From NCBI GenBank assembly GCA_025062045.1, contig JANXAF010000001.1:141256-205255 (forward strand): a stretch of DNA of 64,000 bases. The letters are read 5' to 3'. The position numbers were made by a program, and so were the translations under genes. Positions 23,614 to 50,994 of the stretch are shown in pieces (positions within the stretch are counted from its first letter, which is position 1; each line of letters opens with the position of its first letter). The notes beneath the pieces are model-generated. The model did not search any database, was not told where the DNA came from, and saw nothing but the letters and a program-made list of their open reading frames with translations. Source of the DNA: Thermodesulfobacteriota bacterium. GTDB lineage: Bacteria; Desulfobacterota; Syntrophorhabdia; Syntrophorhabdales; JANXAF01.

Positions 23614-23643
23614 TTGACAATCGGACCGACCGTTCACTATATT
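23614..23643 (+). promoter_or_regulatory. sigma-70-type promoter of the corrinoid methyltransfer operon
   Basis: TTGACA (23614..23619), 18 nt spacer, TATATT (23638..23643). It lies about 30 nt upstream of AAAGGAGGA and the ATG at 23676. Confidence 0.5.
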
Positions 23644-23675
23644 TAAGGTCCGTAAACCTAAAAAGGAGGATACGG

Positions 23676-24305: not shown

Positions 24306-24306
24306 A

Positions 24307-32624: not shown

Positions 32625-33707
32625 ATGAAGATTGCTGTCGGACTAAGTGGGGGTTTTGATTCTTCCATAGCAGCTTATCTTTTGGCAAAGAAAGGATACG
32701 AGCTTATCGGTGTAACCATGAGGATATGGGATGGGAAGATAAGTTGCACTACAAAGAAAAACGCGTGTTACGGGCCGGATGAAGAAAAAGACATAGAATT
32801 TGCACAGAAAATAAGCGAAAAACTCTCCATCCCACACTATGTAATCGATTTAAGAGACGAGTACAGAGAGTTCGTCCTTAATTACTTTTTCCTAGAGTAC
32901 AGAAAAGGAAGAACACCAAATCCCTGTGTTGTGTGTAACTCAAAGATAAAATTCGGGTTTTTGATAGAAAAGGTCCGTTCTTTGGGCCTCGATTTCGATT
33001 GCTTTGCTACGGGACACTACGCACGGATTGAGTTCGATCCGGAAAGGAAAAGATACCATTTAAAGAGGGGTGTCGACGAGCAAAAAGACCAATCCTACTT
33101 TCTCTACAGACTTACTCAAGACCAGTTAAAAACGATTCTATTTCCCCTTGGGGATTTTAGGAAAAATGAGCTAAAAATGAAGGCTTTAGATTTTGGACTG
33201 GAAGAACTTGCAAAAAGAAGGGAAAGCCAGGATTTTTTTGCCGACGATTATAGACTTCTCTTTGAGGACTGTGGCGAACCGGGAAACATAGTCGATGTTT
33301 ACGGTAACGTAATAGGCAGACACAAAGGAATATGCCACTACACTGTAGGTCAAAGGAGGTACCTTAATCTCGCTGGTCTAAAAGAGCCCTATTATGTGCT
33401 AAAAATCGATCCCGAAAGGAACGAGATCGTAGCGGGGCCTAAAAGGTATCTTTTTAGCTCTTCTCTTTTAGCAAAAGATCTTAACTGGCTATTACCTCCA
33501 GAAGAAGTAAAAGGGAAAAAAGTTTTCGCCAAAGTTCGGTCAACAGCAAGGCTTGCCGAATGTACTTTCGATTTTGTAGAAGACATGATTGTTGTTAGAT
33601 TTACCCAACCCCAAGAGGGTATAACACCGGGTCAATCTGTTGTCCTTTACGATGGGGAGGTTGTAATCGGTGGGGGTATTATAGAATCGTATCTAAGCTA
33701 TGAATGA
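32625..33707 (+). CDS. mnmA: tRNA 2-thiouridine(34) synthase
   Basis: PP-loop GLSGGFDSS and catalytic PNPCVVCN. Confidence 0.95.
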   Translation: MKIAVGLSGGFDSSIAAYLLAKKGYELIGVTMRIWDGKISCTTKKNACYGPDEEKDIEFAQKISEKLSIPHYVIDLRDEYREFVLNYFFLEYRKGRTPNPCVVCNSKIKFGFLIEKVRSLGLDFDCFATGHYARIEFDPERKRYHLKRGVDEQKDQSYFLYRLTQDQLKTILFPLGDFRKNELKMKALDFGLEELAKRRESQDFFADDYRLLFEDCGEPGNIVDVYGNVIGRHKGICHYTVGQRRYLNLAGLKEPYYVLKIDPERNEIVAGPKRYLFSSSLLAKDLNWLLPPEEVKGKKVFAKVRSTARLAECTFDFVEDMIVVRFTQPQEGITPGQSVVLYDGEVVIGGGIIESYLSYE

Positions 33708-35293
33708 TGGACATCACAAAAACTGATATAATATCAAAAGCTTTGGTCCGCCTAAAGGGCCTTACAAGTTCTGTTGGAACAAAACTCTTCCTTATCCTCG
33801 TTGCTCTTCTTGCGTTTTCTTTCATAGTAGTCCTCTACCATAATGTTCGAACCTACACGAACCATCTACACGAAAACGTTCTCAAAAATGCCATTCAGAT
33901 AAGCAATATAATAAAGAGCGCCTGTTATCACAGCATGCTGAAAAACGACAGAGAAGGATTGCAGAATATAATCATGAGCGTTGGAAAAGAAGAGGGTATC
34001 GATGCAATAAGGATTTACAACCGGGAAGGAATAATATCTTTTTCGAAGGATAAGGGAGAGATCCACCATGTGGCTGACAAAAGGGCAGAACAGTGCTACG
34101 TCTGCCACAGGGAGGAACCGGCAAAGGGTTTGATTCCAACAAAGGATCTCACAAGGATCCTTGTATCTCCCGAGGGATACAGGCAGCTTGGACTTGTGAA
34201 TCCCATCGAAAATAGTCCGGAATGTTACAATGCGGCTTGCCATGCCCACTCAAAGGATCAGCAGAAACTCGGTTTACTTGATGTCAAACTGTCACTAAAA
34301 AAGATAGATGAAGAAATAGTTCAGACCAAAAGGAGAATGGTCATATACTCTATCCTCCTTATACTTTTTACTGCCCTTCTTAAAGGGGCTTTCATCATTC
34401 TTCTTGTCCACAAGCCCATAAAAAAACTCATAAAAGGCGTAAGAGAGGTGGCAAAACTGAATCTGGATTACAAGGTTGATGTGAAATCGAACGATGAGCT
34501 TGGTGAGCTTGCCGCCTCTTTCAACGAGATGACAAAGGAGTTGAAGAATGCCCAAAACCATCTCATCTTTTCTGAGAGGATGGCCTCTTTAGGTAAAATA
34601 TCGGCCTCTGTTGCGCACGAGATAAATAATCCACTTTCAGGAATACTATCCTACGCAAAACTCACTGCAAGGTTTCTCGAAGAGAACGGCAATGATCCTG
34701 AAAAGATAAAAATGGCGATAGAGAATCTCAAATTTATAAGCGAGGAGAGTAAAAGATGCGGGGAGATAGTGAAGAATCTGCTCCTTTTCTGTAAGAAAAC
34801 CTTTGGTACCATAAGAGGAGAACATCTAAGTACTATAATAGAGAACAGCATAAAGCTCGTGGAGCACAGCGCAAAACTCCAAAAGGTTAAATTTGTAAAG
34901 GAGATAGATACGGAAAACGATATAGTGGTTGTCGATACTGGAGCTATAGAACAGGTTTTTGTCGATCTATTCATAAACGCCATAGAGGCTATGCCAAATG
35001 GTGGAGTGATTAAGGTAAGTACAAAAAACGGAAAGGACGAAATATTGATCACTGTGACAGATACCGGATGTGGTATCCCGGAAAATGTTTTACCCCGTAT
35101 ATTTGAACCTTTTTTCACCACTAAAGACCCAAAAAAGAGCACGGGACTTGGCCTTTGTGTAGTGTATAGTATCATTGAAGATCACGGCGGCAAAATAGAG
35201 GTATCGTCAAAAGTAAACGAAGGAACGACATTCACTATAGTCTTGCCCAGACTTTCGAAGAGATTGCCCAATGAGAAAGGGGGGTTAAGATAG
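33704..35293 (+). CDS. sensor histidine kinase with periplasmic domain carrying two c-type heme-binding motifs, HAMP, HisKA, HATPase
   Basis: TM helices near aa 27-45 and 212-235 flank about 165 aa containing CYVCH (CxxCH, nt 34094..34108) and CYNAACH (Cx4CH, nt 34223..34243). H-box SVAHEINNPL, plus N, G1 and G2 boxes. Confidence 0.9.
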   Translation: MMDITKTDIISKALVRLKGLTSSVGTKLFLILVALLAFSFIVVLYHNVRTYTNHLHENVLKNAIQISNIIKSACYHSMLKNDREGLQNIIMSVGKEEGIDAIRIYNREGIISFSKDKGEIHHVADKRAEQCYVCHREEPAKGLIPTKDLTRILVSPEGYRQLGLVNPIENSPECYNAACHAHSKDQQKLGLLDVKLSLKKIDEEIVQTKRRMVIYSILLILFTALLKGAFIILLVHKPIKKLIKGVREVAKLNLDYKVDVKSNDELGELAASFNEMTKELKNAQNHLIFSERMASLGKISASVAHEINNPLSGILSYAKLTARFLEENGNDPEKIKMAIENLKFISEESKRCGEIVKNLLLFCKKTFGTIRGEHLSTIIENSIKLVEHSAKLQKVKFVKEIDTENDIVVVDTGAIEQVFVDLFINAIEAMPNGGVIKVSTKNGKDEILITVTDTGCGIPENVLPRIFEPFFTTKDPKKSTGLGLCVVYSIIEDHGGKIEVSSKVNEGTTFTIVLPRLSKRLPNEKGGLR

Positions 35294-36637
35294 ATGAAGC
35301 CAAAAGATGTAAGCATCCTTATTGTTGATGACGAACCTTCCATCAGGAACTCTCTTGCGGGCTGGTTCAAAATGGATGGATACAAGACAGAAGTCGCTGA
35401 GGACGCGTATGAAGCTTTAAAAAAACTTCAAGAGAACAATTTCGATATTGCCCTCCTCGACATAAAGATGCCGGAGATGGACGGGATTGAGCTTCAAAGA
35501 AGGATAAAGGAGATAGACAAAAACATAATCACGATAATAATTACTGCATACGCGACAGTAGAGACAGCAATTCAGGCCATGAAAGATGGTGCATTCGACT
35601 ATATCACAAAGCCCATCGATCCTGATGAACTCTCGAGACTCATAAAAAAGGCCATAGAACAGAGGAGACTCATTGCCGAAAATATCATGCTCAGAGGAAA
35701 GATCGAGGAATTACAAAGCCTAGACGAAATAATAGGAGAAAGCCCAGCGATTAAAAAAGTGATGGAGCTTATAAATACAGTTGCGGAGACGGATTCAACG
35801 GTAATGATAAGAGGAGAAAGTGGCACTGGCAAAGAACTCGTAGCAAGAGCAATACATGCTAAAAGCAAAAGGAGATACTTCCCGATTGTCACGATAAACT
35901 GCGGGGCTTACCCGGAGGGACTCTTGGAGAGTGAACTTTTTGGCCATGAAAAAGGTGCTTTTACCGGTGCTCTTTATCAGAGGAAAGGAAAACTCGAGAT
36001 GGCAAATAAAGGTACACTTTTTCTGGATGAAGTCGGAAACATAAGCTTAAAGATGCAGATGGACCTTTTGCGCGTCCTCGAGACGAAGAAGTTCACAAGG
36101 CTTGGCGGCGACAAGGTTATAGAAGCAGATTTTAGGGTTATTTCGGCGACAAACCGTGATCTCGAACAGGCAGTTAGAGAGGGTAGCTTCAGGGAGGACC
36201 TCTATTACAGACTTAACGTTTTTACAATATTCCTTCCTCCTCTGAGGGAGAGAAAGAGCGATATTCCTCTCCTTACATACCATTTCATAAAGAAGTTTTC
36301 GCTCTCAATGAACAAAGACGTAAAAGAGATATCTAAGGAGGCCATGAATCTCCTTATGGACTACGATTGGCCCGGAAATGTAAGGGAGCTAAGAAATGTG
36401 ATCGAGAGGGCAATGGTCAACGTAAAAGGCAGTAGAATTGAAGTCGATGATCTTTACTTTAGCATATCTTCTCCCTATCCCAAGCCTGAAGGAGAGACTC
36501 TCGAAGACGTGGAAAAAGCCCACATAAAGAAGATTCTCAACAAAACGGGATGGAACATCACAAAGGCCGCCGAGATCTTAAACATAGATCGGGTGACCCT
36601 TTATAACAAGATCGAGAAGTACAAACTCAGAAAATAA
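35294..36637 (+). CDS. sigma-54-dependent response regulator (NtrC family: REC-AAA+-Fis HTH)
   Basis: REC (LLDIKMPEMDG), Walker A GESGTGKE, GAFTGA sigma-54 contact loop and a C-terminal Fis-type HTH. Confidence 0.95.
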   Translation: MKPKDVSILIVDDEPSIRNSLAGWFKMDGYKTEVAEDAYEALKKLQENNFDIALLDIKMPEMDGIELQRRIKEIDKNIITIIITAYATVETAIQAMKDGAFDYITKPIDPDELSRLIKKAIEQRRLIAENIMLRGKIEELQSLDEIIGESPAIKKVMELINTVAETDSTVMIRGESGTGKELVARAIHAKSKRRYFPIVTINCGAYPEGLLESELFGHEKGAFTGALYQRKGKLEMANKGTLFLDEVGNISLKMQMDLLRVLETKKFTRLGGDKVIEADFRVISATNRDLEQAVREGSFREDLYYRLNVFTIFLPPLRERKSDIPLLTYHFIKKFSLSMNKDVKEISKEAMNLLMDYDWPGNVRELRNVIERAMVNVKGSRIEVDDLYFSISSPYPKPEGETLEDVEKAHIKKILNKTGWNITKAAEILNIDRVTLYNKIEKYKLRK

Positions 36638-36646
36638 CTACTTTAA

Positions 36647-37174
36647 ATGCCATCCATATACATAGTGCCGGCGTGGCTTGAGGAGAACCATGATCTCGAA
36701 TTTTTGCGACTCCGCATCTCAGAAGTCTTCAGAAAAAAAACGGTCATATACGAGTCAAAAAAGATAGACTTCCACTCCATCTACAACCCCTCAAGGAAAC
36801 AGTACAACTCGTCCCAGTTTCTAATCCAGCTTCTCAATAACCACCCTAAGGACGCATTAAGAATACTGGGAGTCACAGATGTGGATCTATTCATACCAAT
36901 CCTCACGTTTGTCTTCGGAGAAGCCCAGCTTAACGGGATAGCGGGGGTAGTCTCTGTCCACAGACTGAATAACAAGTTCTACGGGTTACCTGAAAATGAG
37001 GAGCTTTTAAGAAAGAGACTTATAAAAGAGGCCATTCATGAGCTTGGACACACTTATGGCCTCGTCCACTGTCTCACTCCTGGGTGTGTGATGAATTCTT
37101 CCACCTATGTGGAAGACATAGATGAAAAATCTGAGTTTTTCTGTTCTTACTGCTCTTCCGTGATCAGGGGTTAA
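36647..37174 (+). CDS. amzA: archaemetzincin-type zinc metalloprotease
   Basis: HELGHTYGLVHCLTPGCVM...CSYC matches the archaemetzincin signature HExxHxxGx3Cx4CxM...CxxC (x16 here versus x17 in the published pattern). Confidence 0.85.
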   Translation: MPSIYIVPAWLEENHDLEFLRLRISEVFRKKTVIYESKKIDFHSIYNPSRKQYNSSQFLIQLLNNHPKDALRILGVTDVDLFIPILTFVFGEAQLNGIAGVVSVHRLNNKFYGLPENEELLRKRLIKEAIHELGHTYGLVHCLTPGCVMNSSTYVEDIDEKSEFFCSYCSSVIRG

Positions 37175-37863
37175 AGGAAGGTTTCTATCAGTTTCAAGTA
37201 ATCTTTCTTTGAGAGTTCCCTAAGTAGCTCCACAAACCTCTTTGAGCCACCGTCCTGCATCGTTGGTCCGACTCTTTCCTTCTGGCTTAATTGAAGTAGA
37301 AAGTTATAAAGCCTCCTTTCATCCCTCTTAAGCCAAAGTAGAGCTTCTTTTCCGGAGAGGAGCTTCTTTATGTCCTTTTCGAAGTTGTCGGGTCTCATCT
37401 TCACTAGAAAACCTTCGTTTAGAGGATCGGAAAGTAGAAGTTCCGGCTTTTTCTTCAAAGAACCATTGACAGATATTACGACACCTGAAACAGGCGAGGG
37501 AAGTGGCAGTATACCCCTTCCCTCAACTATGTGGCAAAACCTTTCACCTTGGACAAACCTATCGCCAGGATTGGGAAAAACAATCGATCTTACGCTCGAT
37601 AAAAAGGACGAAAGGAAGCTATCTATCCCTACTGTGACCTTAGATGGGTTTTCCACTCGGACCCAGAGGTGGTTTGGATGGTAAAAGTTGAAGAATTCTA
37701 TCTTAAAAAAGGGAGCCTCTTCTTTTTCCAGATCTTCGGCCCCTCCACGCATAGCAATATCGAATGGACAGGACGTACAATCGTATTCCCTGTCGCATAG
37801 CTTATAAAGTACGAGGCCCGCTGTCATCCAGACACATCTTTCGTCCACGGCTCTAATCCCCAT
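37171..37863 (-). CDS. GcvH-fold protein with N-terminal 4-Cys segment, no lipoyl-lysine
   Basis: C10-x12-C23-x5-C29-x2-C32, then a GcvH-like core (VGIDSF...SPVSGVVISVN...DPLNEGFLVKM). By hand alignment, Arg occupies the lipoyl-Lys position. ATG abuts the upstream TAG. Confidence 0.65.
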   Translation of the reverse strand: MGIRAVDERCVWMTAGLVLYKLCDREYDCTSCPFDIAMRGGAEDLEKEEAPFFKIEFFNFYHPNHLWVRVENPSKVTVGIDSFLSSFLSSVRSIVFPNPGDRFVQGERFCHIVEGRGILPLPSPVSGVVISVNGSLKKKPELLLSDPLNEGFLVKMRPDNFEKDIKKLLSGKEALLWLKRDERRLYNFLLQLSQKERVGPTMQDGGSKRFVELLRELSKKDYLKLIETFL

Positions 37864-38562
37864 CTACACGTCCTTTGTCATGAAATATTCCTTTACCATC
37901 TCATCCCAGGATTCCGGATTCAAGCTCTTTGCCATTCCAGAGATTGGCAAACCACCATCCTGCAAGAGGTAACCGAGGTTGTAGTTCATTCTGGAAAATA
38001 AACTCTCTTTTAAAGCATCTACCCATCTTATTGCGAGCCGTCCGTTAAGGAGATTTTTTAAATTGGACTTCAAGTTCGGAGAGTAAACCTTAAGTAGCCA
38101 ACCATCGCCGTATGGGTCTTCCGAAAGCTTTTTCGGATTCTTTATCACCTTTTCGTTTATCTCTATTATCTCTCCGTCCAAAGGAGAAAGCATCTTTATC
38201 TCCTTTCCGTCAACAAATAGACTCCAGCCAACTTCCCCTTGGATTATCTCTTCTCCCCTTTTAGGTACCTTTATCGCCTCCACGTTTCCTACAAGTTTTT
38301 GGGCAAAGTCGTCTATTCCAACCCTTGCGATTCTTTCGCCCTCAGGAAAGACCCAAGTGTGTCCCTGGTGGTAGTAAAGGTAATCTGGGATCCTAAAGAG
38401 CCTGCTCATAATCGTCCTTGGCGATTGACTTGGACCTGTGGAGGCTCGGCGGGGTCTTAAGGTCATATAAGAGAAGACCACAAAGGCCGCAAGAAAGAGT
38501 ATCACTAAGATGTACTCGATCCCTTTTGTGGCGAATATGTCGATATAGGTGAATCCTTCCAT
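37864..38562 (-). CDS. N-terminally membrane-anchored GcvH-fold protein
   Basis: TM helix YILVILFLAAFVVFSYMTL followed by RPRR, which predicts a cytoplasmic domain. GcvH-like core VGIDDFAQ...SPLDGEIIEIN...DPYGDGWLLKV. Confidence 0.65.
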   Translation of the reverse strand: MEGFTYIDIFATKGIEYILVILFLAAFVVFSYMTLRPRRASTGPSQSPRTIMSRLFRIPDYLYYHQGHTWVFPEGERIARVGIDDFAQKLVGNVEAIKVPKRGEEIIQGEVGWSLFVDGKEIKMLSPLDGEIIEINEKVIKNPKKLSEDPYGDGWLLKVYSPNLKSNLKNLLNGRLAIRWVDALKESLFSRMNYNLGYLLQDGGLPISGMAKSLNPESWDEMVKEYFMTKDV

Positions 38563-38574
38563 TTTTAACCCTCC

Positions 38575-39927
38575 TTAATAGTCTCTGTATCTTTGGCCAC
38601 CATTTGCCATTGTAAAACCTAGTTCAGCTTGATACTCCTCCTCTTCGAGCTCTTTTTCCTTCGCCCATTCAGGAACTTCCCCATAGACCGGCATCCTATT
38701 GACGACCCATCTGAAGATCCAAAGCTGAGTAAAAACAATCGTTAAAGTTATAACTATCTCTTGCCACGTAGGTATGTACTTCTCGCTAAGCGGGAGGTAC
38801 CACTTGTAAGCGATCATGGAGTAGTTGATCCTGTTTATTATGACGCCGAGCATCGTTACTAAAGCCGCAACTCTAATGAGATTTATCCTTCTGTCCCTTT
38901 GCCCGTAGTAAAACATAAGGCAAGGAATGAGCACGAACCCTAAAACTTCCACAAGATACCAGATCCCCATGGGGCTTGAGATGTATACCCAGCTCTTTCC
39001 GTGTATGAAGATCAAAACCTTAAGGAAGAAGTACACAAAAAGTGTTATGGCACATCCTCTCGCAAGCCCAATAACTATATCATCGTAGTTTTTGAGATAC
39101 TCCTCAGACATCCTATGTCTGAAAACTTTCTTACTTATGGTCCCCTCAACAATCACACAGGAGAGTCCGGCAAATATACTGGAGACGAAAAAGAGAACCG
39201 GAATGAATTCCGTGTACCAGAGGGGGTGTAACTTATTCTTCGCCATCATAAATAGAGCTCCGAGCCCGGACTGGTGAAGGGTTGAGAGGGCTATTCCAAA
39301 GACGCACGCACCGAGCGTCATAGAGCTTAGAATCTTTCTTAGTCTTTTTAGCTCTAGCCACTCGGCAATGGCAGGAGAAAACTCTATAAACTGTGCGATC
39401 ATGTAAAGGAGAAAGTGCCATGCAACAAGAAAAAGTACTGAATTTACACCGAACTCATTTCCGATAATAGGGTTTAGAATGTTCCATTTCCTTCCTAAGT
39501 CCAAAAATATGGCGGATGCATAAAACACATAGGCCAAAAAACCGTTTAATATGGTCGCTCTCAAAATCGGATGGTATTTTTCGGCGTTAAGGATATAAAC
39601 GACGAATGCTAGGACATAGGCACCACCGGCGAATGGCACTCCAACCATGACGTTAAAACCTATAAATATGCCCCACGGAAAGTCTTGAGAAACGTTACTT
39701 CCGTGGGAGAGTCCGTAAAACATGTGGGTTATGATGAGATAGGTCCCCAAAAGGATAATAGGAAGAGTAATGACGTTAAATGCGGTAAGGACCTTTCCTT
39801 TTGGCTTTAATTCTTTAATGAGAAGTACAAGAAAACCGATGAAGTAAAAGGTTAAGAGAACTAGTTTCGATAACGCTAAAGTGAGACCATTTCTCGCAAT
39901 AGTTATGGATTCAAACTCTTTTCTCAT
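38575..39927 (-). CDS. NrfD/PsrC/HybB-family polytopic membrane (quinone-interacting) subunit
   Basis: 450 aa with about 10 TM helices and an acidic cytoplasmic C-terminal tail. ATGA overlap with the upstream Fe-S gene. Confidence 0.8.
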   Translation of the reverse strand: MRKEFESITIARNGLTLALSKLVLLTFYFIGFLVLLIKELKPKGKVLTAFNVITLPIILLGTYLIITHMFYGLSHGSNVSQDFPWGIFIGFNVMVGVPFAGGAYVLAFVVYILNAEKYHPILRATILNGFLAYVFYASAIFLDLGRKWNILNPIIGNEFGVNSVLFLVAWHFLLYMIAQFIEFSPAIAEWLELKRLRKILSSMTLGACVFGIALSTLHQSGLGALFMMAKNKLHPLWYTEFIPVLFFVSSIFAGLSCVIVEGTISKKVFRHRMSEEYLKNYDDIVIGLARGCAITLFVYFFLKVLIFIHGKSWVYISSPMGIWYLVEVLGFVLIPCLMFYYGQRDRRINLIRVAALVTMLGVIINRINYSMIAYKWYLPLSEKYIPTWQEIVITLTIVFTQLWIFRWVVNRMPVYGEVPEWAKEKELEEEEYQAELGFTMANGGQRYRDY

Positions 39928-40790
39928 CTTTCAATCTCCTTTTTACGTTCCTTAGTTAGGTAATGGATACCTGTGAGAAAAGCAGGCCAAAGGATTAGAA
40001 TCACAGGCACAGAGTAGAGAAAGCCTGTCGTGTATTCCGGATAAGGCGTGTAACCCAGATCCATCTGGAAGTTGAGCTTTTCAAATGGATAAGATGAGAT
40101 GTAGAGAAAGGCTGTGCCTCCGACCTCGTTTTCCCCGTAAATGTAAGGCACGTACAAACCGGGGGTTTGATAGATCCTCTTTTTTGCCTCATTTAAAATA
40201 TCCCTTCTTGTACCGAACGTTAAAGCCTCCTTTGGGCAGACTTCGACACAGGCTGGGACTTTCCCAGAACTTATCCTTCCGTAGCACATATCACACTTCA
40301 TGATCCTACCGAAGGCCTCGTCGTATTCGAATTTCGGTATGTCGAAAGGGCATGAAACCATGCAGTACCTGCAACCCATGCAGTTCTCATCCCAGGTTAC
40401 AGGTCCCTCCTTTCGCTTTTTCATTGCCTTTACAAGACAGGCTGCAACACATCCTGGTTGGTTGCAGTGCATACATTGAATTTTTACGTAGATCTCGCCT
40501 TTTTCTGTTAGGAACCTATTGACAACTGTGAGGGTTTTTTCATCCGGCTTTCTTATCTTTGTGAAGACACTTTTGTCCTCTATGTTTGGAATTGGAAGGG
40601 AGTGGGATTCCGCACAGCTCGCCTCACACGTCCTACAACCTATGCACCTTGTCGTATCGACAAGGACACCGAAAAACTCCTTAGTTTTCGCTTTTATCTC
40701 AGAAGAAAAGACGGTTTTGCTACAAATAGCCGAAGATGCGAAAAGACCAAGTCCCGAGAGGGCCACCTTAAGAAACTCTCGTCTTTTCAT
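39924..40790 (-). CDS. Tat-exported 4x[4Fe-4S] ferredoxin subunit with C-terminal TM anchor (HybA/NrfC/DsrO-like)
   Basis: Twin-arginine signal MKRREFLK. Four Cys clusters (CIGCRTCEASC, CMHCNQPGCVAAC, CMGCRYCMVSCP, CDMC...CVEVCP). C-terminal helix VPVILILWPAFLTGI. Confidence 0.9.
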   Translation of the reverse strand: MKRREFLKVALSGLGLFASSAICSKTVFSSEIKAKTKEFFGVLVDTTRCIGCRTCEASCAESHSLPIPNIEDKSVFTKIRKPDEKTLTVVNRFLTEKGEIYVKIQCMHCNQPGCVAACLVKAMKKRKEGPVTWDENCMGCRYCMVSCPFDIPKFEYDEAFGRIMKCDMCYGRISSGKVPACVEVCPKEALTFGTRRDILNEAKKRIYQTPGLYVPYIYGENEVGGTAFLYISSYPFEKLNFQMDLGYTPYPEYTTGFLYSVPVILILWPAFLTGIHYLTKERKKEIER

Positions 40791-41022
40791 CCTCTGCCTC
40801 CTCTTTTTCTTGAACTTTCTCTCCCCCGTCTGCTAGTGTGAAACCGAGCTCAGGAGTGTAAAACAGCGACTTTTCTCTAAGTTTTACTTCCATGGCCTTT
40901 TTTGTCGGATATAGACCCATAAAGAATAGATGCCATGCGAGATACCCGAAAATGAGCCCAAGGATCAATCCACCCCCCAAAAGAAGGACTGGGTAAATTT
41001 CTATGAATCTTCCGGCTTCCAT
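40768..41022 (-). CDS. 84-aa single-pass membrane protein with acidic tail
   Basis: GGAGGTGA SD 5 nt upstream of the ATG. One TM helix followed by basic residues. Carries the ELGFTLADGG motif shared with the NrfD-like C-terminus. 23-nt overlap with the next gene. Confidence 0.6.
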   Translation of the reverse strand: MEAGRFIEIYPVLLLGGGLILGLIFGYLAWHLFFMGLYPTKKAMEVKLREKSLFYTPELGFTLADGGEKVQEKEEAEDEKTRVS

Positions 41023-41052
41023 AAACTCACCTCCTTTCTAACTTATAAATTG

Positions 41053-41067
41053 GCAATATGCGTGCCA
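41053..41067 (-). promoter_or_regulatory. sigma-54 (-24/-12) promoter
   Basis: Minus strand reads TGGCAC-GCATA-TTGC (TGGCAC = 41067..41062, TTGC = 41056..41053), an exact match to TGGCAC-N5-TTGC. It lies 31 nt upstream of the ATG at 41022. Confidence 0.7.
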
Positions 41068-41159
41068 AACTTTTTGCTTTTCTCCCCTTCTGCTAACTAT
41101 TTGGTATTATTTGGGTTTTTTGAAAGAGTGTGGAAAAAATCAAAAGAAGGATTTATTAG

Positions 41160-41202
41160 ATCGTTGAATTTTTCAACGATGGGCTATTGAATTTTTCAAC
41201 GA
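41160..41202. promoter_or_regulatory. tandem palindromic enhancer-like (UAS) sites
   Basis: A perfect 21-bp palindrome ATCGTTGAA-TTT-TTCAACGAT (41160..41180). An exact 16-nt repeat of its core, TTGAATTTTTCAACGA, occurs at 41187..41202. Centres are 23 bp apart and about 104 and 127 bp upstream of the -24 element. Confidence 0.55.
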
Positions 41203-41414
41203 CTCGTGGATAGGTCCAATTCGTATCCTTCCGACTCAATAGCTCGTTTTAATGCCTCTAAATCTATTTCACCCTCGTACGTTACTTTTAGTGTTTCGGT
41301 CTCTACATTTGCCTCACACGCGATCACATTTTTTATCCGTTTTACGGCAGATTCGATCCTTCTTTCGCAATGACTACATCCCATGCCTTTTACTTGCAGG
41401 GTAATCGTTTTCAT
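41196..41414 (-). CDS. copZ: copper chaperone CopZ (HMA domain)
   Basis: 72 aa with the GMGCSHC metal-binding loop. Confidence 0.9.
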   Translation of the reverse strand: MKTITLQVKGMGCSHCERRIESAVKRIKNVIACEANVETETLKVTYEGEIDLEALKRAIESEGYELDLSTSR

Positions 41415-43867
41415 CTTCTTACTCCCAGATTGAGTGCTTTTATTCTCAAAGAATTGAGTACCACAAAAAGCGAGCTCAATGTCATCGCAAAGGAAGCATA
41501 AAGAGGTTTAAGTAGGATCTGAAACGTTGGATAGAATAGACCTGATGCGCACGGTATAAGAAGGACATTATAGAAAAAAGCCCAAAAAAGGTTTTCTTTT
41601 ACTATTTTATTCGTCTTTCTGGAGAGCTTTAAAAATCTCACTATGCCCCTTAAGTCCTCGTTTATGAGGATTACGTCAGACGTTTGAGCAGCGATATCCG
41701 TTCCCTTACCCATCGCGAATCCCAAATCAGAAAGGCTAAGGGCAGGAGCATCATTTATACCATCTCCCACCATCGCAACCTTATATCCTCTCTTTTTGAG
41801 ATCTTCAACTTTTAAAGACTTCTCATGGGGAAGCATATCTCCAAAGACTTCATCTATATTTGCTCTTTTAGCAAAGATTTTAGCCACATTCATGCTATCT
41901 CCAGTGAGAAGACCGATTCTTATCCCCATCTTTTTAAGTTCCGAAATAGTCTCAATCGATTCCTCTCTTAGCGTGTCCCCTATGGCTATAAAACCGGCAA
42001 GAATCCCATCAATTGCTACACAAAGACAAGTACTTCCGTCACCTGTTAGCCTTTCATAAACCTCTCTGTGAGGTTCTATTTCCACGCCCATTCTTTTTGC
42101 AAAAGATAGACTGCCAACTAGTACCTTTTTTGAAGTAACTTCTCCTATCAACCCTTCACCAGGAACGTAACTGAATGACTCCGGTTCAGAAAGAAAAAGA
42201 TTTCTTGCCATGGCGTATCTCACAATGGCACGTCCTAAAGGATGTTCAGAGTTCTTCTCAAGGGACCCTGCAATGGCAACGATCTCTTCCTCTTCAAACC
42301 CATTTACAGGAAAGACCGTCTTTACTTCCACTTTACCGTAAGTTAGAGTTCCCGTCTTGTCGATGAGTACGTAATTTATCTTTTTTGCCGAATCAAAAGC
42401 TTCCCCGTTTCTTACTAGGATTCCATACTCTGCCGCCTTTGAACTGGCCACAAAGATCGCAATCGGAGTTGCGAGACCCAAAGCGCAAGGACAAGCAACG
42501 ATGAGTACCGAAACGAAAATCATAAGCGAAAAAGAAGCCGGATATCCCGAAGTAAGCCAGACTAGAAAAGAAAAAAAGGCAATAAAAAAAACGGTGGGCA
42601 CAAAAATACTTGCTATCTTATCAGCCAGGGCTTGGACAGGTGCTTTTCGGGCTTGAGCCCTTTTTACCATCTCCACAATTTGGGAAAGAAGCGTATCCTT
42701 GCCGATTCTTTGCACCTTTAACTTGAATGCTCCTAAAAGGTTGAGACTCGAAGCGTAAACCCAATCCCCAGTCTTCTTCTCTTTAGGTATGGCTTCTCCT
42801 GTAATCGAAGACTCATCTAGTGTACCATACCCGTCTATTATCAGCCCATCTACAGGGATCCTCTCTCCTGGCCTCACAAGTAGTACGTCTTCTTCTTTTA
42901 TCTCCTTTAAAGGGACCTCTTTTATCTTTCCGTCTCTTATAACGGTTGCTTTTTTGGGTAGTAGTGAGGCCAGTCTTCTTATTGCCTCGTACGCTCTTTT
43001 TTTTGCCTTAAGTTCAAGAAGTCTTCCAAAGAGTACAAGCGTTATTATTACGGCACATGTCTCATAGTAAACATCGAGTGGTGGTGAACCTTTTTTTATA
43101 TATGGAAAAAAAGTATTGAAGGAACTGTATAGGTAAGCTGAACCACTACCCACCGAGATGAGCGCGTTCATATCGAATGAGAGATGCTTTGCGGAGCGCA
43201 AAAATGCGAAGAGAAATCCGCTTCCGCCGTAAAAAAAGATGGGCGTTGTGAGAAAAAAAAGGGCAAGGTTTATGCTCTGTCTGTCAAAGCTCATAAAAAA
43301 GAAGTGAAGAAACATATCCGAAAGGACAAAGAAAGTAAGAATAGCTGAAAGAACGAGTCTTTTTTTTAGTCGTTTCTTTTCTTTTTCTTTTTTTACTTCC
43401 TCGAATGATTCTACATCCTCATCCTCGATATGAAGAATTGAGAGTCCAAGATCGGTCAAAATCTTTTTCACATCTTCGAGAGAGACAATTGTCGGCACAA
43501 ACTCTACGGTTATTTCCTCTGCTAAGGGATTGACATGGACATACGTAATTCCGATCTTACTTTTAAGCCTTTTATCTATGATATCAAAAGCCGGGATCAT
43601 CGATAGTCCCTGAACAGGTATCACCGCTTTGTTTGTTTCAACCTCATAACCTAAATCTTTCACGGTTTTTATTATCTTTTCGAGCAACTCTCGAGAAAAT
43701 TCTTTGGCCTCTACGGTTGCCCTTTCCAAAACGAGATTCAACGAAACTCTTTCTAACTCCTTTATCTTCGAAAGGCTATCCTCTATTCTTTTCACACATG
43801 CAGAACAGGTCATACCGGATATTGGGATTATGAGTATTTGTGTCCCTTCTTGAGCCACCCGGTTCAT
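41411..43867 (-). CDS. copA: copper-translocating P1B-type ATPase
   Basis: HMA GMTCSAC, a second HMA-like repeat lacking the Cys pair (GLSMIPAF), TM CPC, DKTGTLT and GDGINDAP. ATG at 43867 chosen, because the TTG at 43912 would read through the hcp terminator. Confidence 0.9.
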   Translation of the reverse strand: MNRVAQEGTQILIIPISGMTCSACVKRIEDSLSKIKELERVSLNLVLERATVEAKEFSRELLEKIIKTVKDLGYEVETNKAVIPVQGLSMIPAFDIIDKRLKSKIGITYVHVNPLAEEITVEFVPTIVSLEDVKKILTDLGLSILHIEDEDVESFEEVKKEKEKKRLKKRLVLSAILTFFVLSDMFLHFFFMSFDRQSINLALFFLTTPIFFYGGSGFLFAFLRSAKHLSFDMNALISVGSGSAYLYSSFNTFFPYIKKGSPPLDVYYETCAVIITLVLFGRLLELKAKKRAYEAIRRLASLLPKKATVIRDGKIKEVPLKEIKEEDVLLVRPGERIPVDGLIIDGYGTLDESSITGEAIPKEKKTGDWVYASSLNLLGAFKLKVQRIGKDTLLSQIVEMVKRAQARKAPVQALADKIASIFVPTVFFIAFFSFLVWLTSGYPASFSLMIFVSVLIVACPCALGLATPIAIFVASSKAAEYGILVRNGEAFDSAKKINYVLIDKTGTLTYGKVEVKTVFPVNGFEEEEIVAIAGSLEKNSEHPLGRAIVRYAMARNLFLSEPESFSYVPGEGLIGEVTSKKVLVGSLSFAKRMGVEIEPHREVYERLTGDGSTCLCVAIDGILAGFIAIGDTLREESIETISELKKMGIRIGLLTGDSMNVAKIFAKRANIDEVFGDMLPHEKSLKVEDLKKRGYKVAMVGDGINDAPALSLSDLGFAMGKGTDIAAQTSDVILINEDLRGIVRFLKLSRKTNKIVKENLFWAFFYNVLLIPCASGLFYPTFQILLKPLYASFAMTLSSLFVVLNSLRIKALNLGVRR

Positions 43868-43897
43868 AAAAAAAGGGACGGAGGGTAGCCCTCCGTC
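43868..43897 (-). terminator. rho-independent terminator after hcp
   Basis: Minus strand reads GACGGAGGG-cta-CCCTCCGTC followed by CCTTTTTTT. The 9-bp GC-rich stem occupies 43877..43897 and the T7 run 43868..43874. The T-run leads directly into the copA ATG. Confidence 0.7.
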
Positions 43898-43902
43898 TAA
43901 AA

Positions 43903-45537
43903 TCAGACACAAGAAAGCATAGCTTTCACATCTTCTTCCGCAGAAGAGATCGGTTTTAGATCGAACCTTTCAACTATCATCTTTCCGACACGGGGAGAGA
44001 TAAAAGCAGGCAGTGTCGGGCCAAGCCTAATACCTTTAAAACCGAGATACAAAAGGGCAAGAAGGACACTTACCGCTTTCTGTTCATACCAGGCGATATC
44101 AAAAGAAATTGGTAGGCTATCTAGGTCCGAAAACCCAAGTAACTCCTTAAGTTTAAGCGCCACATATGCCAAGGAGTAGGAATCGTTACACTGGCCCGCA
44201 TCGATCACTCTTGGTATACCCTTTATATCACCGAGGGGTAAGGTGTTGTATCTGAATTTGGCGCACCCCGCAGTAAGTATCACTGTGTCTTTAGGCAAAA
44301 TCTTTGCGACTTCCGTAAAGTACTCCCTCGTCTTATGCCTTCCATCACAACCCGCCATCACTACGAATCTCTTTATATCTCCGGATTTTAAAAGATCCAA
44401 AATCCTATCCGCAAAAGATAGGATCTGATTGTGACCGAATCCTCCATAGATTTTTTTATCCTTTAACGGCTTTGGAGGAGAACATCTCTTAGCCACCTCA
44501 ATTATCTTTGTGAAATCTTTAGGCTTTCCATCTTCTCTGTCCGGGATGTGAATAGCCCCCGGATAGCTTACGGGACCTAGTGTGAATAACCTAGAAAGAT
44601 AGGTATTTTCCTTTCTTAGTGGGATTAAGCAGTTCGTTGTGGCAAGAATAGGTCCATTGAAGGATTCAAACTCGTCGTTTTGAGCTGGCCACGAACCTCC
44701 ATAGTTACCTATAAGATTTTTGAATTTTTTGAAGACAGGATAGAAGTGGGCTGGGAGCATCTCTCCGTGTGTGTAAACGTCTATGTTTTCACCCTGTGTC
44801 TGCTCAAGAAGCTCGTACAGATCTTTTAGATCGTGCCCTGTAATTAGGATCCCAGGGTTTGAGCCAACTTTTGTTTTTACTTCCGTAAACTCCGGGTGCC
44901 CGAAAGTCTTCGTATTTGCTTCATCAAGCAAAGCGATAGTTTTGACTGCAATCTCCCCGGTTTTTACAACAAGGGAGAAAAGTTCCTCTTCTTTTAGTTC
45001 CTTCGTTAGAGATGCCAAACCCTCAACTATGAAATTGTAAATTTCGTCACTCTCATAACCAAGATTCGCAGCATGTTCTGCATAAGCCGAAATACCCTTT
45101 ATTCCGAATGTGATTAGGGACTTTAAGGATCTTACGTCTTCATCGGGAATCGAGTTTATCCGAACTTCAAAAGAGGATGCTTTTTCTTTGATATCCTCCT
45201 TTTTATCAGCCGACCATGTCGCACAGTCAGGAAGATCAGTAAGTGGGGACTTTAGTTTTCCTTTTAAAGAATCGCGCAATCTCAGCCCCTCTTTTATCCT
45301 CTCGATTATAATTTCATCATCCCATCCCACATTGGTAAGTGTTGTAAAAAGGGCCCGACATAGAAACCTACCTATCTCTCGATCCAACTTTTCGAGTCTT
45401 GAAGCGTAAATGCTTATCCCCTTGCAAACGTAAATTAGAAGATCCTGTAAGTTCGCTGTAGTTTCGGTCTTGCCGCAAACTCCTCTCGTCGTGCAAGCTA
45501 CGTTCTTTGCCGTCTCCTGACACTGAAAACAAAACAT
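43903..45537 (-). CDS. hcp: hybrid-cluster protein / hydroxylamine reductase
   Basis: N-terminal MFCFQCQET...C...GVCGK cluster motif, 544 aa. Confidence 0.95.
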   Translation of the reverse strand: MFCFQCQETAKNVACTTRGVCGKTETTANLQDLLIYVCKGISIYASRLEKLDREIGRFLCRALFTTLTNVGWDDEIIIERIKEGLRLRDSLKGKLKSPLTDLPDCATWSADKKEDIKEKASSFEVRINSIPDEDVRSLKSLITFGIKGISAYAEHAANLGYESDEIYNFIVEGLASLTKELKEEELFSLVVKTGEIAVKTIALLDEANTKTFGHPEFTEVKTKVGSNPGILITGHDLKDLYELLEQTQGENIDVYTHGEMLPAHFYPVFKKFKNLIGNYGGSWPAQNDEFESFNGPILATTNCLIPLRKENTYLSRLFTLGPVSYPGAIHIPDREDGKPKDFTKIIEVAKRCSPPKPLKDKKIYGGFGHNQILSFADRILDLLKSGDIKRFVVMAGCDGRHKTREYFTEVAKILPKDTVILTAGCAKFRYNTLPLGDIKGIPRVIDAGQCNDSYSLAYVALKLKELLGFSDLDSLPISFDIAWYEQKAVSVLLALLYLGFKGIRLGPTLPAFISPRVGKMIVERFDLKPISSAEEDVKAMLSCV

Positions 45538-45598
45538 GCTTACCTCCTCATTTTTCGTTAAGCTTTCTTAATATTACCCCTTCTTTCATAAACTTTCT

Positions 45599-45612
45599 TT
45601 GCTCTAGATCAA
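45599..45612 (-). promoter_or_regulatory. FNR/CRP-type operator in the hcp promoter
   Basis: Minus strand reads TTGAT-CTAG-AGCAA, a 9/10 match to TTGAT-N4-ATCAA. TAATAT (-10) lies at 45576..45571. The site centre falls near -41.5 if the TSS is 7 nt past the -10. Confidence 0.5.
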
Positions 45613-45614
45613 AA

Positions 45615-46304
45615 TCACCCGGTAGATCCCTTCGTGACATCATCTATGGCATCGGGATCGATAATTACTATTTTTTTCCTCCTAGAGGCTATCCATCCCT
45701 TTGATTCCCAGTCTTTCAAGATTCTGCTCACGGAGTAAAGTGTTGTACAAGCGTATTGAGCAAGCTCTTCCCTCGATATCGGAAGATCGATAGAGATTCC
45801 CGCACTAACTCTTTTTCTCTCATATGCCGTGAGCCTTAGAAGAGCTCGACCTATTCTTTTTTTTAGGTCTTCCGAATAAAGCTCCAATAGCCGGTTTTGC
45901 ACCTCTTCAAATCGGTCTATTACGACCTTTAAGATATTCAGAGTCAATTGGGGGTATACCCTCAATGCTTCTAGTATCACACCTTTCGGCCATGAAAGTA
46001 CACTCGAATCGTGAACCGCTTCTGCACTCACCCCATAACATTTTTCACCAAAAAGCGAAGTGGCACCAAGTATTTCCCCAGGCCCAGCATACCTAATTAG
46101 GACCGATTTACCATCGTCATTTGTCTTAGTAAGCTTAAATTTTCCATTGAGCACAAGATAGAATCTCTGTGCAGTCTGCCCTTCGAGGAATAGTTTTCCT
46201 TTTTTTTTGACACTTCCATGGTCTGCACTTTTGATTATGCCTTCTTTTGCTTTCTCGCTCAGCCCTGATAATATTGCAAAATCGAATACATTCTCCTCAA
46301 TCAT
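45615..46304 (-). CDS. Crp/Fnr-family transcriptional regulator (HcpR-like by context)
   Basis: cNMP-binding-like beta-barrel plus C-terminal HTH (REELAQYACTTLYSVSRILKDWE). Its ATG overlaps the cbiH stop (ATGA). Confidence 0.85.
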   Translation of the reverse strand: MIEENVFDFAILSGLSEKAKEGIIKSADHGSVKKKGKLFLEGQTAQRFYLVLNGKFKLTKTNDDGKSVLIRYAGPGEILGATSLFGEKCYGVSAEAVHDSSVLSWPKGVILEALRVYPQLTLNILKVVIDRFEEVQNRLLELYSEDLKKRIGRALLRLTAYERKRVSAGISIDLPISREELAQYACTTLYSVSRILKDWESKGWIASRRKKIVIIDPDAIDDVTKGSTG

Positions 46305-47074
46305 CCCTCGATTCCGTAGCCTCTTGGCGTTATCATGTACTTCCCCTTTATAAATGTGGAAGAGTTTCCGACGATAAGTGTAGAGACCATATCAATCGTT
46401 TCTAGACCTGATATTCTATTAAGATTCGTGATTATCACTTCTTGGGATTTTCTTTTTGCATTCTTTACAATTCCGACAGGTGTCGATGGAGGCCTAAATT
46501 TTAAGAGTATCTCTAAGGCTACTTGGAACGGTTTTTCCCTATTTTTAGCTTTAGGGTTGTAAAATACAATTACGAAATCTCCCTCACATGCAGCTTTTAC
46601 CCTCTTTTTTATGATCTCTAAACTAACTAAATGGTCGCTTAAAGATATTACCGCAAAGTCGTTCATAAGAGGTGCTCCGAGAAGGCTTGCGCAGACAGAG
46701 GCAGCTGTTACACCGGGAATTATCTCTATCGCTATCTTTTCCATCGCTTCGTTATTCAAAAGCTCTAAAATCGGTCCCGCCATACCGTAAATTCCAGGAT
46801 CCCCACTAGAGACTACACAAACATCAAATCCTTCCAAAACCTTTTCTATCGCCTTTTTTGCGCGAGTTAGCTCACGGCCCATACCCGTAGAAATGACCTC
46901 TTTTTCTGAGAGTATCTCTTGAGAAAAAATCTCTTTTACGATATCGATGTAACCTTCGTAGCCAACTACGATGTCGCATTCTTCTATTGCCCTTTTTGCC
47001 CCAAAGGTCACATCGTCTTTACTTCCGGGCCCAATGCCAACTATCCTAAGTCTTCCTTTGCTATTGCAACGCAT
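46301..47074 (-). CDS. cbiH: cobalt-precorrin-3 (C17)-methyltransferase
   Basis: LRIVGIGPGS and the class III SAM methyltransferase fold. The start is uncertain: ATG at 47074 is preferred to the TTG at 47137, which would overlap cbiG by 97 nt. Confidence 0.85.
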   Translation of the reverse strand: MRCNSKGRLRIVGIGPGSKDDVTFGAKRAIEECDIVVGYEGYIDIVKEIFSQEILSEKEVISTGMGRELTRAKKAIEKVLEGFDVCVVSSGDPGIYGMAGPILELLNNEAMEKIAIEIIPGVTAASVCASLLGAPLMNDFAVISLSDHLVSLEIIKKRVKAACEGDFVIVFYNPKAKNREKPFQVALEILLKFRPPSTPVGIVKNAKRKSQEVIITNLNRISGLETIDMVSTLIVGNSSTFIKGKYMITPRGYGIEG

Positions 47075-48529: not shown

Positions 48530-48539
48530 TTTGCCTTTT

Positions 48540-50961: not shown

Positions 50962-50994
50962 CGTTTAGATCGTCACATAAAAAGTTTTCGTTTT

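Follow-up and report, generated by a model that had tools for sequence, protein, structure and literature searches.

The window analysed here, a 64,000-nt stretch of contig JANXAF010000001.1 (positions 141,256 to 205,255, forward strand; assembly GCA_025062045.1) from a Thermodesulfobacteriota bacterium of the Syntrophorhabdales order, carries on its minus strand five tightly packed open reading frames (ORFs). They encode, in order, a small protein with a single transmembrane (TM) helix, a HmcB/HybA-like iron-sulfur protein, a HmcC/HybB-like membrane subunit of the NrfD type, and two proteins with the fold of the glycine cleavage H-protein GcvH, one membrane-anchored and one soluble (Table 1). 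The successive junctions are a 23-nt overlap, an ATGA overlap, a 12-nt gap and a TAG-ATG abutment, and a Shine-Dalgarno sequence precedes each of the five start codons. Inspection of the ORFs and junctions reproduced the coordinates and strand given in the initial annotation, and its proposal of a single operon was supported by the absence of an internal terminator and the presence of one sigma-54 promoter. The unit is larger than the five genes, and also comprises the promoter with its upstream activating sequence (UAS), a sensor kinase, a sigma-54-dependent regulator and an M54 peptidase (window positions 33704-41200). Within a conserved system of at least eight genes, these five make up the structural operon. 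The stop codons of the last operon gene and of the convergent M54 gene overlap by 4 nt (TTAA, 37171-37174), leaving no space for a terminator.

Table 1. Features of the structural operon and of its regulatory genes and sites, with window coordinates.
Feature	Position	Strand	Evidence
Small single-TM protein, 84 aa	40768-41022	-	ORF with Shine-Dalgarno sequence
ELGFTLADGG, end of the predicted cytoplasmic tail of the small TM protein	40822-40848	-	sequence
HmcB/HybA-like periplasmic iron-sulfur subunit, 288 aa	39924-40790	-	profile matches, Tat and Cys motifs
HmcC/HybB-like NrfD-type quinone/proton subunit, 450 aa	38575-39927	-	profile matches
ELGFTMANGG, cytoplasmic C-terminal tail of the NrfD-type subunit	38596-38622	-	sequence
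HmcD-like TM helix + H-protein-fold domain (anchored GcvH-like protein), 232 aa	37864-38562	-	GCV_H, AlphaFold
HmcD-like TM helix of the anchored protein	residues ~9-35; 38458-38538	-	AlphaFold
H-protein-fold domain of the anchored protein	residues 62-174; 38041-38379	-	GCV_H, AlphaFold
K120 of the anchored protein	38203-38205	-	alignment
NLGYLLQDGG, C-terminal extension of the anchored GcvH-like protein	37951-37977	-	sequence
Soluble H-protein-fold protein with N-terminal Cys4 domain, 230 aa	37171-37863	-	GCV_H, AlphaFold, Foldseek
Cys4 domain of the soluble protein (C10, C23, C29, C32)	37768-37836	-	family alignment
VGPTMQDGG, C-terminal extension of the soluble GcvH-like protein	37246-37272	-	sequence
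Sigma-54 (-24/-12) promoter TGGCACGCATATTGC, ~30 nt upstream of the first start codon	41053-41067	-	pattern search
Two 15-bp palindromes GTTGAAAAATTCAAC, putative enhancer-binding-protein sites	41163-41200	.	sequence
Sensor histidine kinase, HAMP + HisKA + HATPase	33704-35293	+	domain search
NtrC-type sigma-54 activator, REC + AAA+ sigma-54 interaction + Fis-type helix-turn-helix	35294-36637	+	Sigma54_activat 4e-72
M54 (archaemetzincin-type) zinc peptidase, convergent with the operon	36647-37174	+	PF07998 5e-25, 89 bits (cut-off 24.4)

The anchored GcvH-like protein had 961 word-indexed homologues, the best 120 of which were 48-74% identical over 98-100% of the query, and its family comprised 153 clusters at 50% identity (E <= 1e-30). 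A scan of species-representative genomes yielded 171 relatives, from which 80 loci were kept, while the neighbourhood comparisons covered 82 distinct related loci from more than ten phyla. Hosts among the 80 loci included Syntrophales and other Thermodesulfobacteriota, Calditrichia, Bacteroidota/Ignavibacteria/Chlorobiota, Gemmatimonadota, Deferrimicrobia, Rokubacteria, Nitrospinota, Planctomycetia, Myxococcota and KSB1, among others. The gene set first seen in this window was found to recur in the 82 loci: genes for the HmcB-like, HmcC-like and anchored GcvH-like proteins stay together, accompanied by one to three more GcvH-like genes, and the gene set and order are kept at 40-74% identity. 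Co-occurrence was counted in the 28 loci with at least 6 kb of flanking sequence on both sides, using conservative score thresholds. There, HmcB-like and HmcC-like genes were each found in 26 loci, the M54 peptidase and the sigma-54 regulator each in 25, and the sensor kinase in 23, so that each partner was present in 82-93% of the well-flanked loci. Gene orders vary, the regulatory genes being either convergent with the operon or arranged as a co-directional kinase-regulator-M54 operon. A rearranged psr, hyb or dsr locus was ruled out by this conserved synteny.

The iron-sulfur subunit has a twin-arginine translocation (Tat) motif (RREFLK), four complete [4Fe-4S] cysteine motifs and a C-terminal hydrophobic anchor, which, as read from the sequence, is an arrangement of the tail-anchored Tat type, as in HybA. 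It matched Fer4_11 in Pfam (4e-20), HmcB in NCBIfam (NF045715; 3e-100, 335 bits, with model positions 1-288 of 307 aligned) and HybA (7e-68, 229 bits), and its best solved relative was FdnH (1kqf_B, 9e-34). The NrfD-type protein matched NrfD in Pfam (PF03916; 5e-12, 46.5 bits against a gathering score of 25.8), HmcC in NCBIfam (NF045714; 9e-117, 390.5 bits) and HybB (2e-68), with 27% identity to E. coli HybB; a sequence search returned no solved structure of a close NrfD relative. These matches agree with the initial annotation, which had described a Tat-exported protein with four clusters and a C-terminal anchor beside an NrfD/PsrC/HybB-like polytopic subunit.

The residues R89, Y99, E148, H184, D109, S129, E291, H200 and R329 of HybB were invariant in all 58 family members aligned, and their equivalents in the window protein are R123, Y133, E182, H218, D143, S163, E327, H234 and R366, respectively. 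Replacing R89, Y99, E148 or H184 in HybB impairs hydrogenase 2 (Hyd-2) of E. coli (PMC8076601). The invariance of these functional residues argues for a membrane subunit competent for quinone and proton function, and not a relic. Residues 1-47 of the window protein form an N-terminal extension ahead of the region aligned with HmcC and HybB. They include an extra hydrophobic segment (residues 19-37), which the homologue in locus L089 does not have; if this segment spans the membrane, the N-terminus would be periplasmic. The core C-terminus is predicted to be cytoplasmic, because in L089 it is fused through a further TM helix to a cytochrome c7 domain.

The N-terminal helix of the anchored GcvH-like protein (MEGFTYIDIFATKGIEY...) is strongly conserved. 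Precomputed matches to PF28260 (DVU_0533) were available for many of its homologues at 53-54% identity, not for the window protein itself, and a profile of the first 42 residues of the anchored family matched the PF28260-annotated small ORF of L002 (E 2.4e-5). The features expected of an HmcD/DVU_0533-type protein would be a short conserved N-terminus of the form F-x-A-T-[KN]-G-x-x-Y, a single TM helix after it, and a gene beside HmcB/HmcC-type genes; DVU0533 is HmcD of the Desulfovibrio vulgaris hmc operon. By this comparison the anchor is predicted to be HmcD-like, and the operon would encode HmcB-, HmcC- and HmcD-like parts, the last fused to an H-fold domain. The core of the system is assigned by homology to the quinone modules of the Hmc/Nhc/Hyb lineage, with a periplasmic iron-sulfur protein, a haem-free NrfD subunit and an HmcD-like helix.

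Both GcvH-like proteins matched the GCV_H family (PF01597; cut-off 22.2 bits), the anchored one at 2e-22 (79.6 bits) and the soluble one at 9e-20 (71.3 bits), and both scored below the 115.85-bit cut-off of the GcvH equivalog TIGR00527 (73.4 and 63.4 bits, respectively). AlphaFold monomer models were built on the family alignments. In the anchored protein, the TM helix was modelled at residues 9-35 and the H-fold domain had a predicted local distance difference test (pLDDT) score of about 90 or above. The soluble protein had an overall pLDDT of 82, with more than 90 in the GcvH-like domain and 54-70 in the Cys domain. Foldseek superposed the soluble 230-aa model on the Thermus H-protein (1onl_A) with a TM-score of 0.93 and a root-mean-square deviation of 1.3 Å, and GcvH-L (5a35) was also among the structural matches. 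Profiles and structural comparisons thus concur with the GcvH fold proposed earlier for both ORFs.

The position of the lipoyl-lysine column was the same whether HMMER was used to align the proteins to H-proteins of solved structure or MAFFT to align 150 GcvH-like ORFs to GcvH of E. coli. Compared with the Thermus, pea and E. coli H-proteins, the column is occupied by Gly119 in the anchored protein, with Lys120 next to it, and by Arg115 in the soluble protein, as an earlier alignment by hand had indicated. Across the families it holds S or G (anchored family), D, N or R (Cys4 family) or assorted residues (other paralogues), and K120 is nearly invariant in the anchored family. In a lipoyl domain, lipoylation is lost when the lysine is shifted by a single residue. 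Judged from these alignments and models, both proteins have an H-protein fold that lacks the lipoyl-lysine, and canonical lipoylation would be impossible for them. No gcvT- or gcvP-like family was recurrent in the window operon or the 82 loci. A canonical GcvH, or a carrier of the LbpA type, was rejected for want of the lipoyl-lysine and of the partner genes, and the label 'glycine cleavage system protein H', under which databases list the GcvH-like genes of this system, is misleading. A special HxxH metal site was also considered and rejected: of its two His residues, the second alone is invariant across the two families, and ordinary H-proteins have a conserved His at the equivalent place.

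Three further occurrences of GcvH-like domains depart from the usual layout. The 413-aa protein P0173 has, by tandem duplication, a second GcvH-like domain after an anchored GcvH-like protein, the DGG motif described below being replaced in both copies (LGLVLPDRHASDGCD, LGLVLPHNYGKDGCD). The 1391-aa protein P0307 joins three GcvH-like domains without lipoyl-lysine to a GlcD-like FAD oxidase, a 4Fe-4S dicluster domain and two CCG (HdrD-like) domains, and is a further case of pseudo-H-protein domains on an Hdr-type redox enzyme. In L091 (84-1245), pieces of two genes, one for an anchored GcvH-like protein and one for a Cys4-GcvH protein, lie in three short ORFs outside the usual module context, and are probably a frameshifted copy that is decaying or mis-assembled.

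The domains attached to the GcvH-like proteins suggest a signalling role. The C-x12-C-x5-C-x2-C segment noted earlier at the N-terminus of the soluble protein is kept across its family as a Cys4 domain (C-x12-KLCDR-x3-C-x2-CPFD), which also occurs as a stand-alone 69-aa gene within the same type of module; a search with this domain alone returned only 13 short proteins, with no informative fusion or name. Elsewhere, a hemerythrin domain is N-terminal to a GcvH-like paralogue (L001), and receiver domains are fused to GcvH-like paralogues in L048, L058, L078 and P0178. A receiver domain resides in the cytoplasm and controls the output domain joined to it, so that the H-fold domain acts like an effector or adaptor. 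Since the NrfD subunit has no haem and the GcvH-like proteins have no lipoyl-lysine, a role as redox carriers is unlikely. In five loci of a Bacteroidota type (L048, L058, L067, L078 and L083, first ~5.8 kb), a second NrfD-like gene, a 13-haem cytochrome, a second histidine kinase and two receiver-GcvH fusions lie upstream of the operon; this extra unit suggests post-translational control besides transcriptional control.

A short motif of the type LGxTMxDGG is common to four of the five proteins of the operon, in each case on a cytoplasmic part (Table 1). Like the predicted HmcD homology of the anchor, it had not been noticed in the initial annotation. The strict pattern occurred at exactly those four places in the six-frame translation of the window and in none of 200 shuffled sequences. 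The D-G-G triplet is invariant in both GcvH-like families, and in both monomer models the segment lies between confident helices with a pLDDT below 50; invariance combined with low monomer confidence is what one would expect if the peptide took up its fold only when bound to a partner. The 84-aa TM protein had no Pfam or NCBIfam match. In 30 of the 82 loci, small TM proteins ending in P-[QEH]-LG[LF]-TMADGG are encoded ahead of the HmcB-like gene (33 small ORFs of this kind in total), and the motif was found at the C-terminus of 14 NrfD subunits elsewhere.

The sigma-54 pattern upstream of the operon (TGGCAC-N5-TTGC) had its sole match in the 64-kb window at this position, with 0.02 matches expected. 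The two GTTGAAAAATTCAAC palindromes are 23 bp apart and ~100-130 bp upstream of the -24 element. In L007 the promoter is identical and both palindromes are kept, although the surrounding sequence and the upstream gene differ, and at least 15 further loci have similar sigma-54 sites ahead of the operon. Conservation of the exact TTGAA-N3-TTCAA palindrome was not found across the loci; a looser pair of GTTGA-N5-TCAAC-like sites was conserved, occurring in 34 of the 82 loci compared to one of 82 shuffled loci, typically 100-200 bp upstream of a sigma-54-like site before the operon. The periplasmic domain of the sensor kinase carries a CxxCH and a Cx4CH motif, both present in 40 of 43 orthologues, which suggests a di-haem c sensor. 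In the M54 peptidase, the zinc site HELGHxxGLxHC (HELGHTYGLVHC) and the Cys residues are conserved in 47 orthologues. From the gene linkage and these sites, we infer that the operon is controlled by the adjacent di-haem kinase and NtrC-type regulator.

Immediately upstream of the operon and on the same strand (41196-46304) are genes for CopZ, a CopA-type P-type ATPase, a hybrid-cluster protein (Prismane, 3e-159) and a Crp/Fnr-type regulator. The stop codon of the ATPase gene overlaps the start of the CopZ gene by 4 nt, and the first UAS palindrome overlaps the CopZ stop codon.

As pairs of the NrfC/NrfD type usually come with a catalytic subunit, the initial annotation had called the module an orphan. 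Among the window ORFs, no catalytic subunit was indeed found in or adjoining the operon, no ORF had more than one CXXCH motif, and the 64-kb window contains no cytochrome c gene. When all other ORFs of the 82 loci were clustered, no molybdopterin, hydrogenase or Dsr-type gene was recurrent, and the module is thus not one whose orthologues always carry an adjacent catalytic gene. The sole molybdopterin enzyme in the window, a 682-aa oxidoreductase with an N-terminal Fe4S4 domain (16362-18410), was rejected as the missing subunit: it is without a Tat signal and 19 kb distant, and related loci hold no equivalent of it. This enzyme, unrelated to the operon, is probably cytoplasmic, given the lack of a Tat signal.

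The description as an orphan holds for this window and not for about 30% of the related loci, in which multihaem cytochromes c are encoded nearby, within the operon or as fusions. At least one ORF with three or more CXXCH motifs was found in 25 of the 82 loci, and in eight loci a class III cytochrome c (c3) of 118-140 aa directly follows the NrfD gene. CbcBA-like pairs (a cytochrome b561 and a 7- to 13-haem cytochrome c) were present in about ten loci (L008, L013, L016, L022, L025, L026, L027, L074, L082 and L005), beside the kinase or regulator or divergent from the operon. Three fusions were found: the NrfD subunit with an extra eleventh helix and a tri-haem c7 domain (L089/L090), a tetrahaem cytochrome followed by an HmcD-like helix and GcvH (P0186, P0203), and an anchored GcvH followed by a second helix and c7 (P0290). 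Through these three independent fusions, cytochromes and the module are linked physically. The fusions also place the N-terminus of the anchor in the periplasm, and the GcvH domain and the core NrfD C-terminus in the cytoplasm, in agreement with the 10-helix model of HybB and NhcC in a review of the NrfD family. Together with the receiver-domain fusions, this corroborates the cytoplasmic location of the GcvH-like domain that had been deduced from the positive-inside rule. With cytochromes near, in or fused to the module in about 30% of the loci, the periplasmic partner in the window organism is probably a small cytochrome encoded elsewhere and supplied in trans.

One locus, L002, has a second cytochrome-linked cluster (1442-5833) divergent from its GcvH-linked module, with an HmcD-like ORF, Fer4_11, NrfD and 13-haem and 4-haem cytochromes. 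Downstream (11996-15004) are DsrE-like, TusA, NarI-like and CCG (DsrMK-like) genes; such sulfur-trafficking neighbours were seen only there and on the near-duplicate contigs L003 and L004.

The interpretation preferred here, tentatively, is that of a sigma-54-controlled Hmc/Nhc-type cytochrome-c:menaquinone module with cytoplasmic pseudo-H-proteins as docking or regulatory subunits. Electrons would be exchanged between small periplasmic c3/c7-type cytochromes and the menaquinone pool. Since the NrfD subunit is haem-free, none would cross the membrane to the cytoplasmic GcvH-like proteins. On the cytoplasmic face, one pseudo-H-protein would be tethered by the HmcD-like helix and one would be soluble with its Cys4 domain. 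The LGxTMxDGG peptide on all cytoplasmic pieces would serve as a docking element, ordered only in the assembled complex. The pseudo-H-proteins may act as adaptor or regulatory subunits relaying cytoplasmic signals to the activity or stability of the module, possibly at the cytoplasm-facing proton half-channel. The signals could be thiol or metal state (through Cys4) and, in other loci, O2, NO or iron (through hemerythrin) and phosphorylation (through receiver domains). The module would be made in response to the periplasmic redox state, sensed by the di-haem kinase and transmitted by the NtrC-type regulator, and the M54 peptidase may, speculatively, process or remove the motif-bearing tails. 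We have high confidence in the system's composition, conservation, topology and sigma-54 control, moderate confidence in its cytochrome c:menaquinone function, and low confidence in any particular mechanism proposed for the GcvH-like proteins, the motif or the peptidase. The initial annotation had suggested carrier or docking modules; of these, docking or regulation is favoured and a lipoyl-type carrier disfavoured, and the GcvH-like proteins, with the DGG-motif tails, are probably subunits for docking or regulation at the module's cytoplasmic face.

Several points weigh against this interpretation. Both core subunits fall under the equivalog cut-offs of their best models (335 compared to 420 bits for HmcB, 390.5 compared to 550 bits for HmcC), and a periplasmic partner has to be assumed for a window that has no cytochrome c gene. 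The putative association of the GcvH-like proteins and tails with the NrfD subunit is drawn from gene linkage, the HmcD-like anchor and the fusions, and the putative link between kinase, regulator and promoter from co-occurrence and the site footprint. An unusual modification at the near-invariant K120 is conceivable. Finally, all family members found are from metagenome-assembled or single-amplified genomes, with no cultured host among the records.

A more specific proposal, possible but rather doubtful, is that the lipoate-free pseudo-H-proteins form a new class of cytoplasmic subunits of NrfD modules, which would dock through LGxTMxDGG, a peptide borne by the membrane-tethered tails as well, carry interchangeable Cys4, hemerythrin or receiver sensors, and switch the activity or proton coupling of the module according to cytoplasmic signals.

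It is less likely again that the assembly is itself a sensor, in which the iron-sulfur/NrfD/HmcD unit would read the redox state of the quinone pool or periplasm, with the tethered GcvH-fold domain and the soluble paralogues of that domain as relays to targets in the cytoplasm such as the sigma-54 regulator, the kinase or the M54 peptidase. The constant linkage of the module with a two-component system and a peptidase would fit such a role, as would the occurrence of GcvH-like domains as receiver outputs and as fusions to hemerythrin and Cys4 sensor-type domains, and the several motif copies per locus could compete for one site. However, an operon behind a sigma-54 promoter and UAS is the output of the regulator rather than its input, the conservation of all four clusters and of the HybB proton-path residues goes beyond what a sensor needs, and the cytochrome fusions suggest real electron flux.

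A role of the motif as a putative M54 processing site, with cleavage of the tails for maturation or inactivation as in the C-terminal processing of the large subunit of [NiFe]-hydrogenases, is considered improbable. The peptidase gene, with its conserved catalytic residues, is present in 25 of the 28 well-flanked loci, often in one operon with the kinase and regulator, and the motif is conserved, exposed and disordered in the monomer models, as a cleavage site might be. The GcvH-like proteins have, however, a conserved and confidently modelled helix after the motif, which argues that the C-terminus is kept, and to our knowledge no defined substrates have been reported for prokaryotic archaemetzincins.

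Still less probable is that the GcvH-like proteins are swinging-arm carriers of lipoate, another prosthetic group or sulfane sulfur, like LbpA of the sHdr system. The H-protein fold itself, the near invariance of K120, the DsrE, TusA and DsrMK-like genes beside the module in L002, and the distant relative P0307, with its flavoenzyme and HdrD-like domains, would all suit a carrier. The residues in the lipoyl-lysine column and the displacement of the lysine by one residue speak against it, genes for lipoate ligase, Hdr or sulfur transfer are not recurrent among the 82 loci, and a haem-free NrfD subunit offers no electron route to the cytoplasm. The last alternative, a decayed or rearranged hmc, nhc, psr or hyb remnant that lost its catalytic gene and has unrelated GcvH-like neighbours, would account for the sub-cut-off HmcB and HmcC matches and for the missing catalytic gene, but is for practical purposes refuted by the comparative data: a gene set and gene order shared by 82 loci from more than ten phyla, the 153 clusters of the anchored family, the invariant functional residues, and the translational coupling, dedicated promoter and shared motif that bind the genes together.

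Elsewhere in the window, a RACo-type corrinoid activase (616 aa; Pfam-checked) is preceded by ORFs guessed to be methyltransferase- or corrinoid-related (23562-27866), and a run of ORFs at 46301-52239 was guessed from sequence to be cobalamin-biosynthesis genes.

Among known systems, the Hmc and Nhc complexes of Desulfovibrio (HmcABCDEF, NhcABCD) are similar in that HmcB and HmcC are the best matches of the core subunits, the anchor probably resembles HmcD/DVU_0533, and in relatives small multihaem cytochromes, separate or fused, take the place of HmcA or NhcA. In contrast to them, the window operon has no cytochrome subunit, no HmcE (cytochrome b) and no HmcF (HdrD-like), its HmcD-like helix is fused to an H-fold domain, additional GcvH-like and motif-tail proteins are present, and the equivalog cut-offs are missed. 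HybA-HybB of E. coli Hyd-2 likewise pairs a tail-anchored Tat iron-sulfur protein with a 10-TM NrfD-type subunit, all of whose quinone and proton residues are conserved in the window protein, whereas the window operon has no hydrogenase or maturation genes and its cytoplasmic accessory proteins are without counterpart in Hyd-2. Iron-sulfur/NrfD modules with multihaem cytochromes instead of a molybdoenzyme have been proposed in genome papers as quinol:periplasmic-cytochrome oxidoreductases (PMC9386147). Several related loci are from Deferrimicrobia and about ten have CbcBA-like neighbours, which recalls the clusters described for Melioribacter, MBNT15/Deferrimicrobia and Geobacter Cbc, but those descriptions include no GcvH-like subunits, DGG motif or kinase/regulator/M54 set.

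The H-protein fold has been recruited outside glycine cleavage, in a redox or stress context, in LbpA (sHdr sulfur oxidation) and in GcvH-L of Streptococcus pyogenes, both of which keep the lipoyl-lysine and depend on lipoylation. The window proteins, unlike these, have no lipoyl-lysine, and no linkage to Hdr, lipoate ligase or SirTM was seen in the 82 loci. The N-terminal barrel-sandwich hybrid domains of NqrA and RnfC are closer in some respects, being lipoyl-like domains without lipoyl-lysine on the cytoplasmic side of membrane redox complexes. Relatives of the window proteins gave weak matches to the NQRA_N and RnfC_N profiles; the sequence family, partners and complex all differ, and the likeness is at the level of fold and role only.

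For the regulatory genes, the nearest parallel is in Geobacter sulfurreducens, where GSU0599 is a periplasmic two-haem sensor protein (PMC3831638) and the sigma-54 regulator BccR (GSU0598) is required for the low-potential quinone oxidoreductase CbcBA (bioRxiv 10.1101/2021.04.15.440034). The likeness is one of architecture, with a two-haem sensor beside the sigma-54 regulator that activates a sigma-54-dependent operon encoding an inner-membrane quinone oxidoreductase, and the CbcBA-like pairs near the module in related loci recall the BccR-cbcBA arrangement; the Geobacter target is, in contrast, a cytochrome bc complex and not an iron-sulfur/NrfD/GcvH module. None of the fifteen complex types of the 2021 NrfD-family review has such a composition or such cytoplasmic accessory proteins (PMC8076601). 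A full-text search for GcvH or glycine cleavage together with NrfD, Hmc, HybA/B, archaemetzincin or sigma-54 returned nothing relevant. In line with the initial annotation, to which no described respiratory complex of this composition was known, the redox core is of an already known kind, and the pseudo-H-protein layer, the shared motif and the kinase/regulator/M54 set appear undescribed.

NrfD-type modules tie many anaerobic respirations to the quinone pool. The system described here is widespread and adds to such a module an apparently signal-responsive cytoplasmic layer made from a fold known only as a lipoyl carrier. Several of its parts are open to testing, namely the docking motif, the sensor fusions, the promoter and UAS, and the dedicated kinase and peptidase. 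The finding would correct the routine mis-annotation of these genes as 'glycine cleavage system protein H'. If the pseudo-H-proteins do form a new class of signal-switched subunits, prokaryotic M54 peptidases would gain their first defined cellular context, and the family would represent a signal-controlled 'gear shift' for respiratory energy conservation, with a dedicated di-haem kinase, sigma-54 regulator and archaemetzincin.

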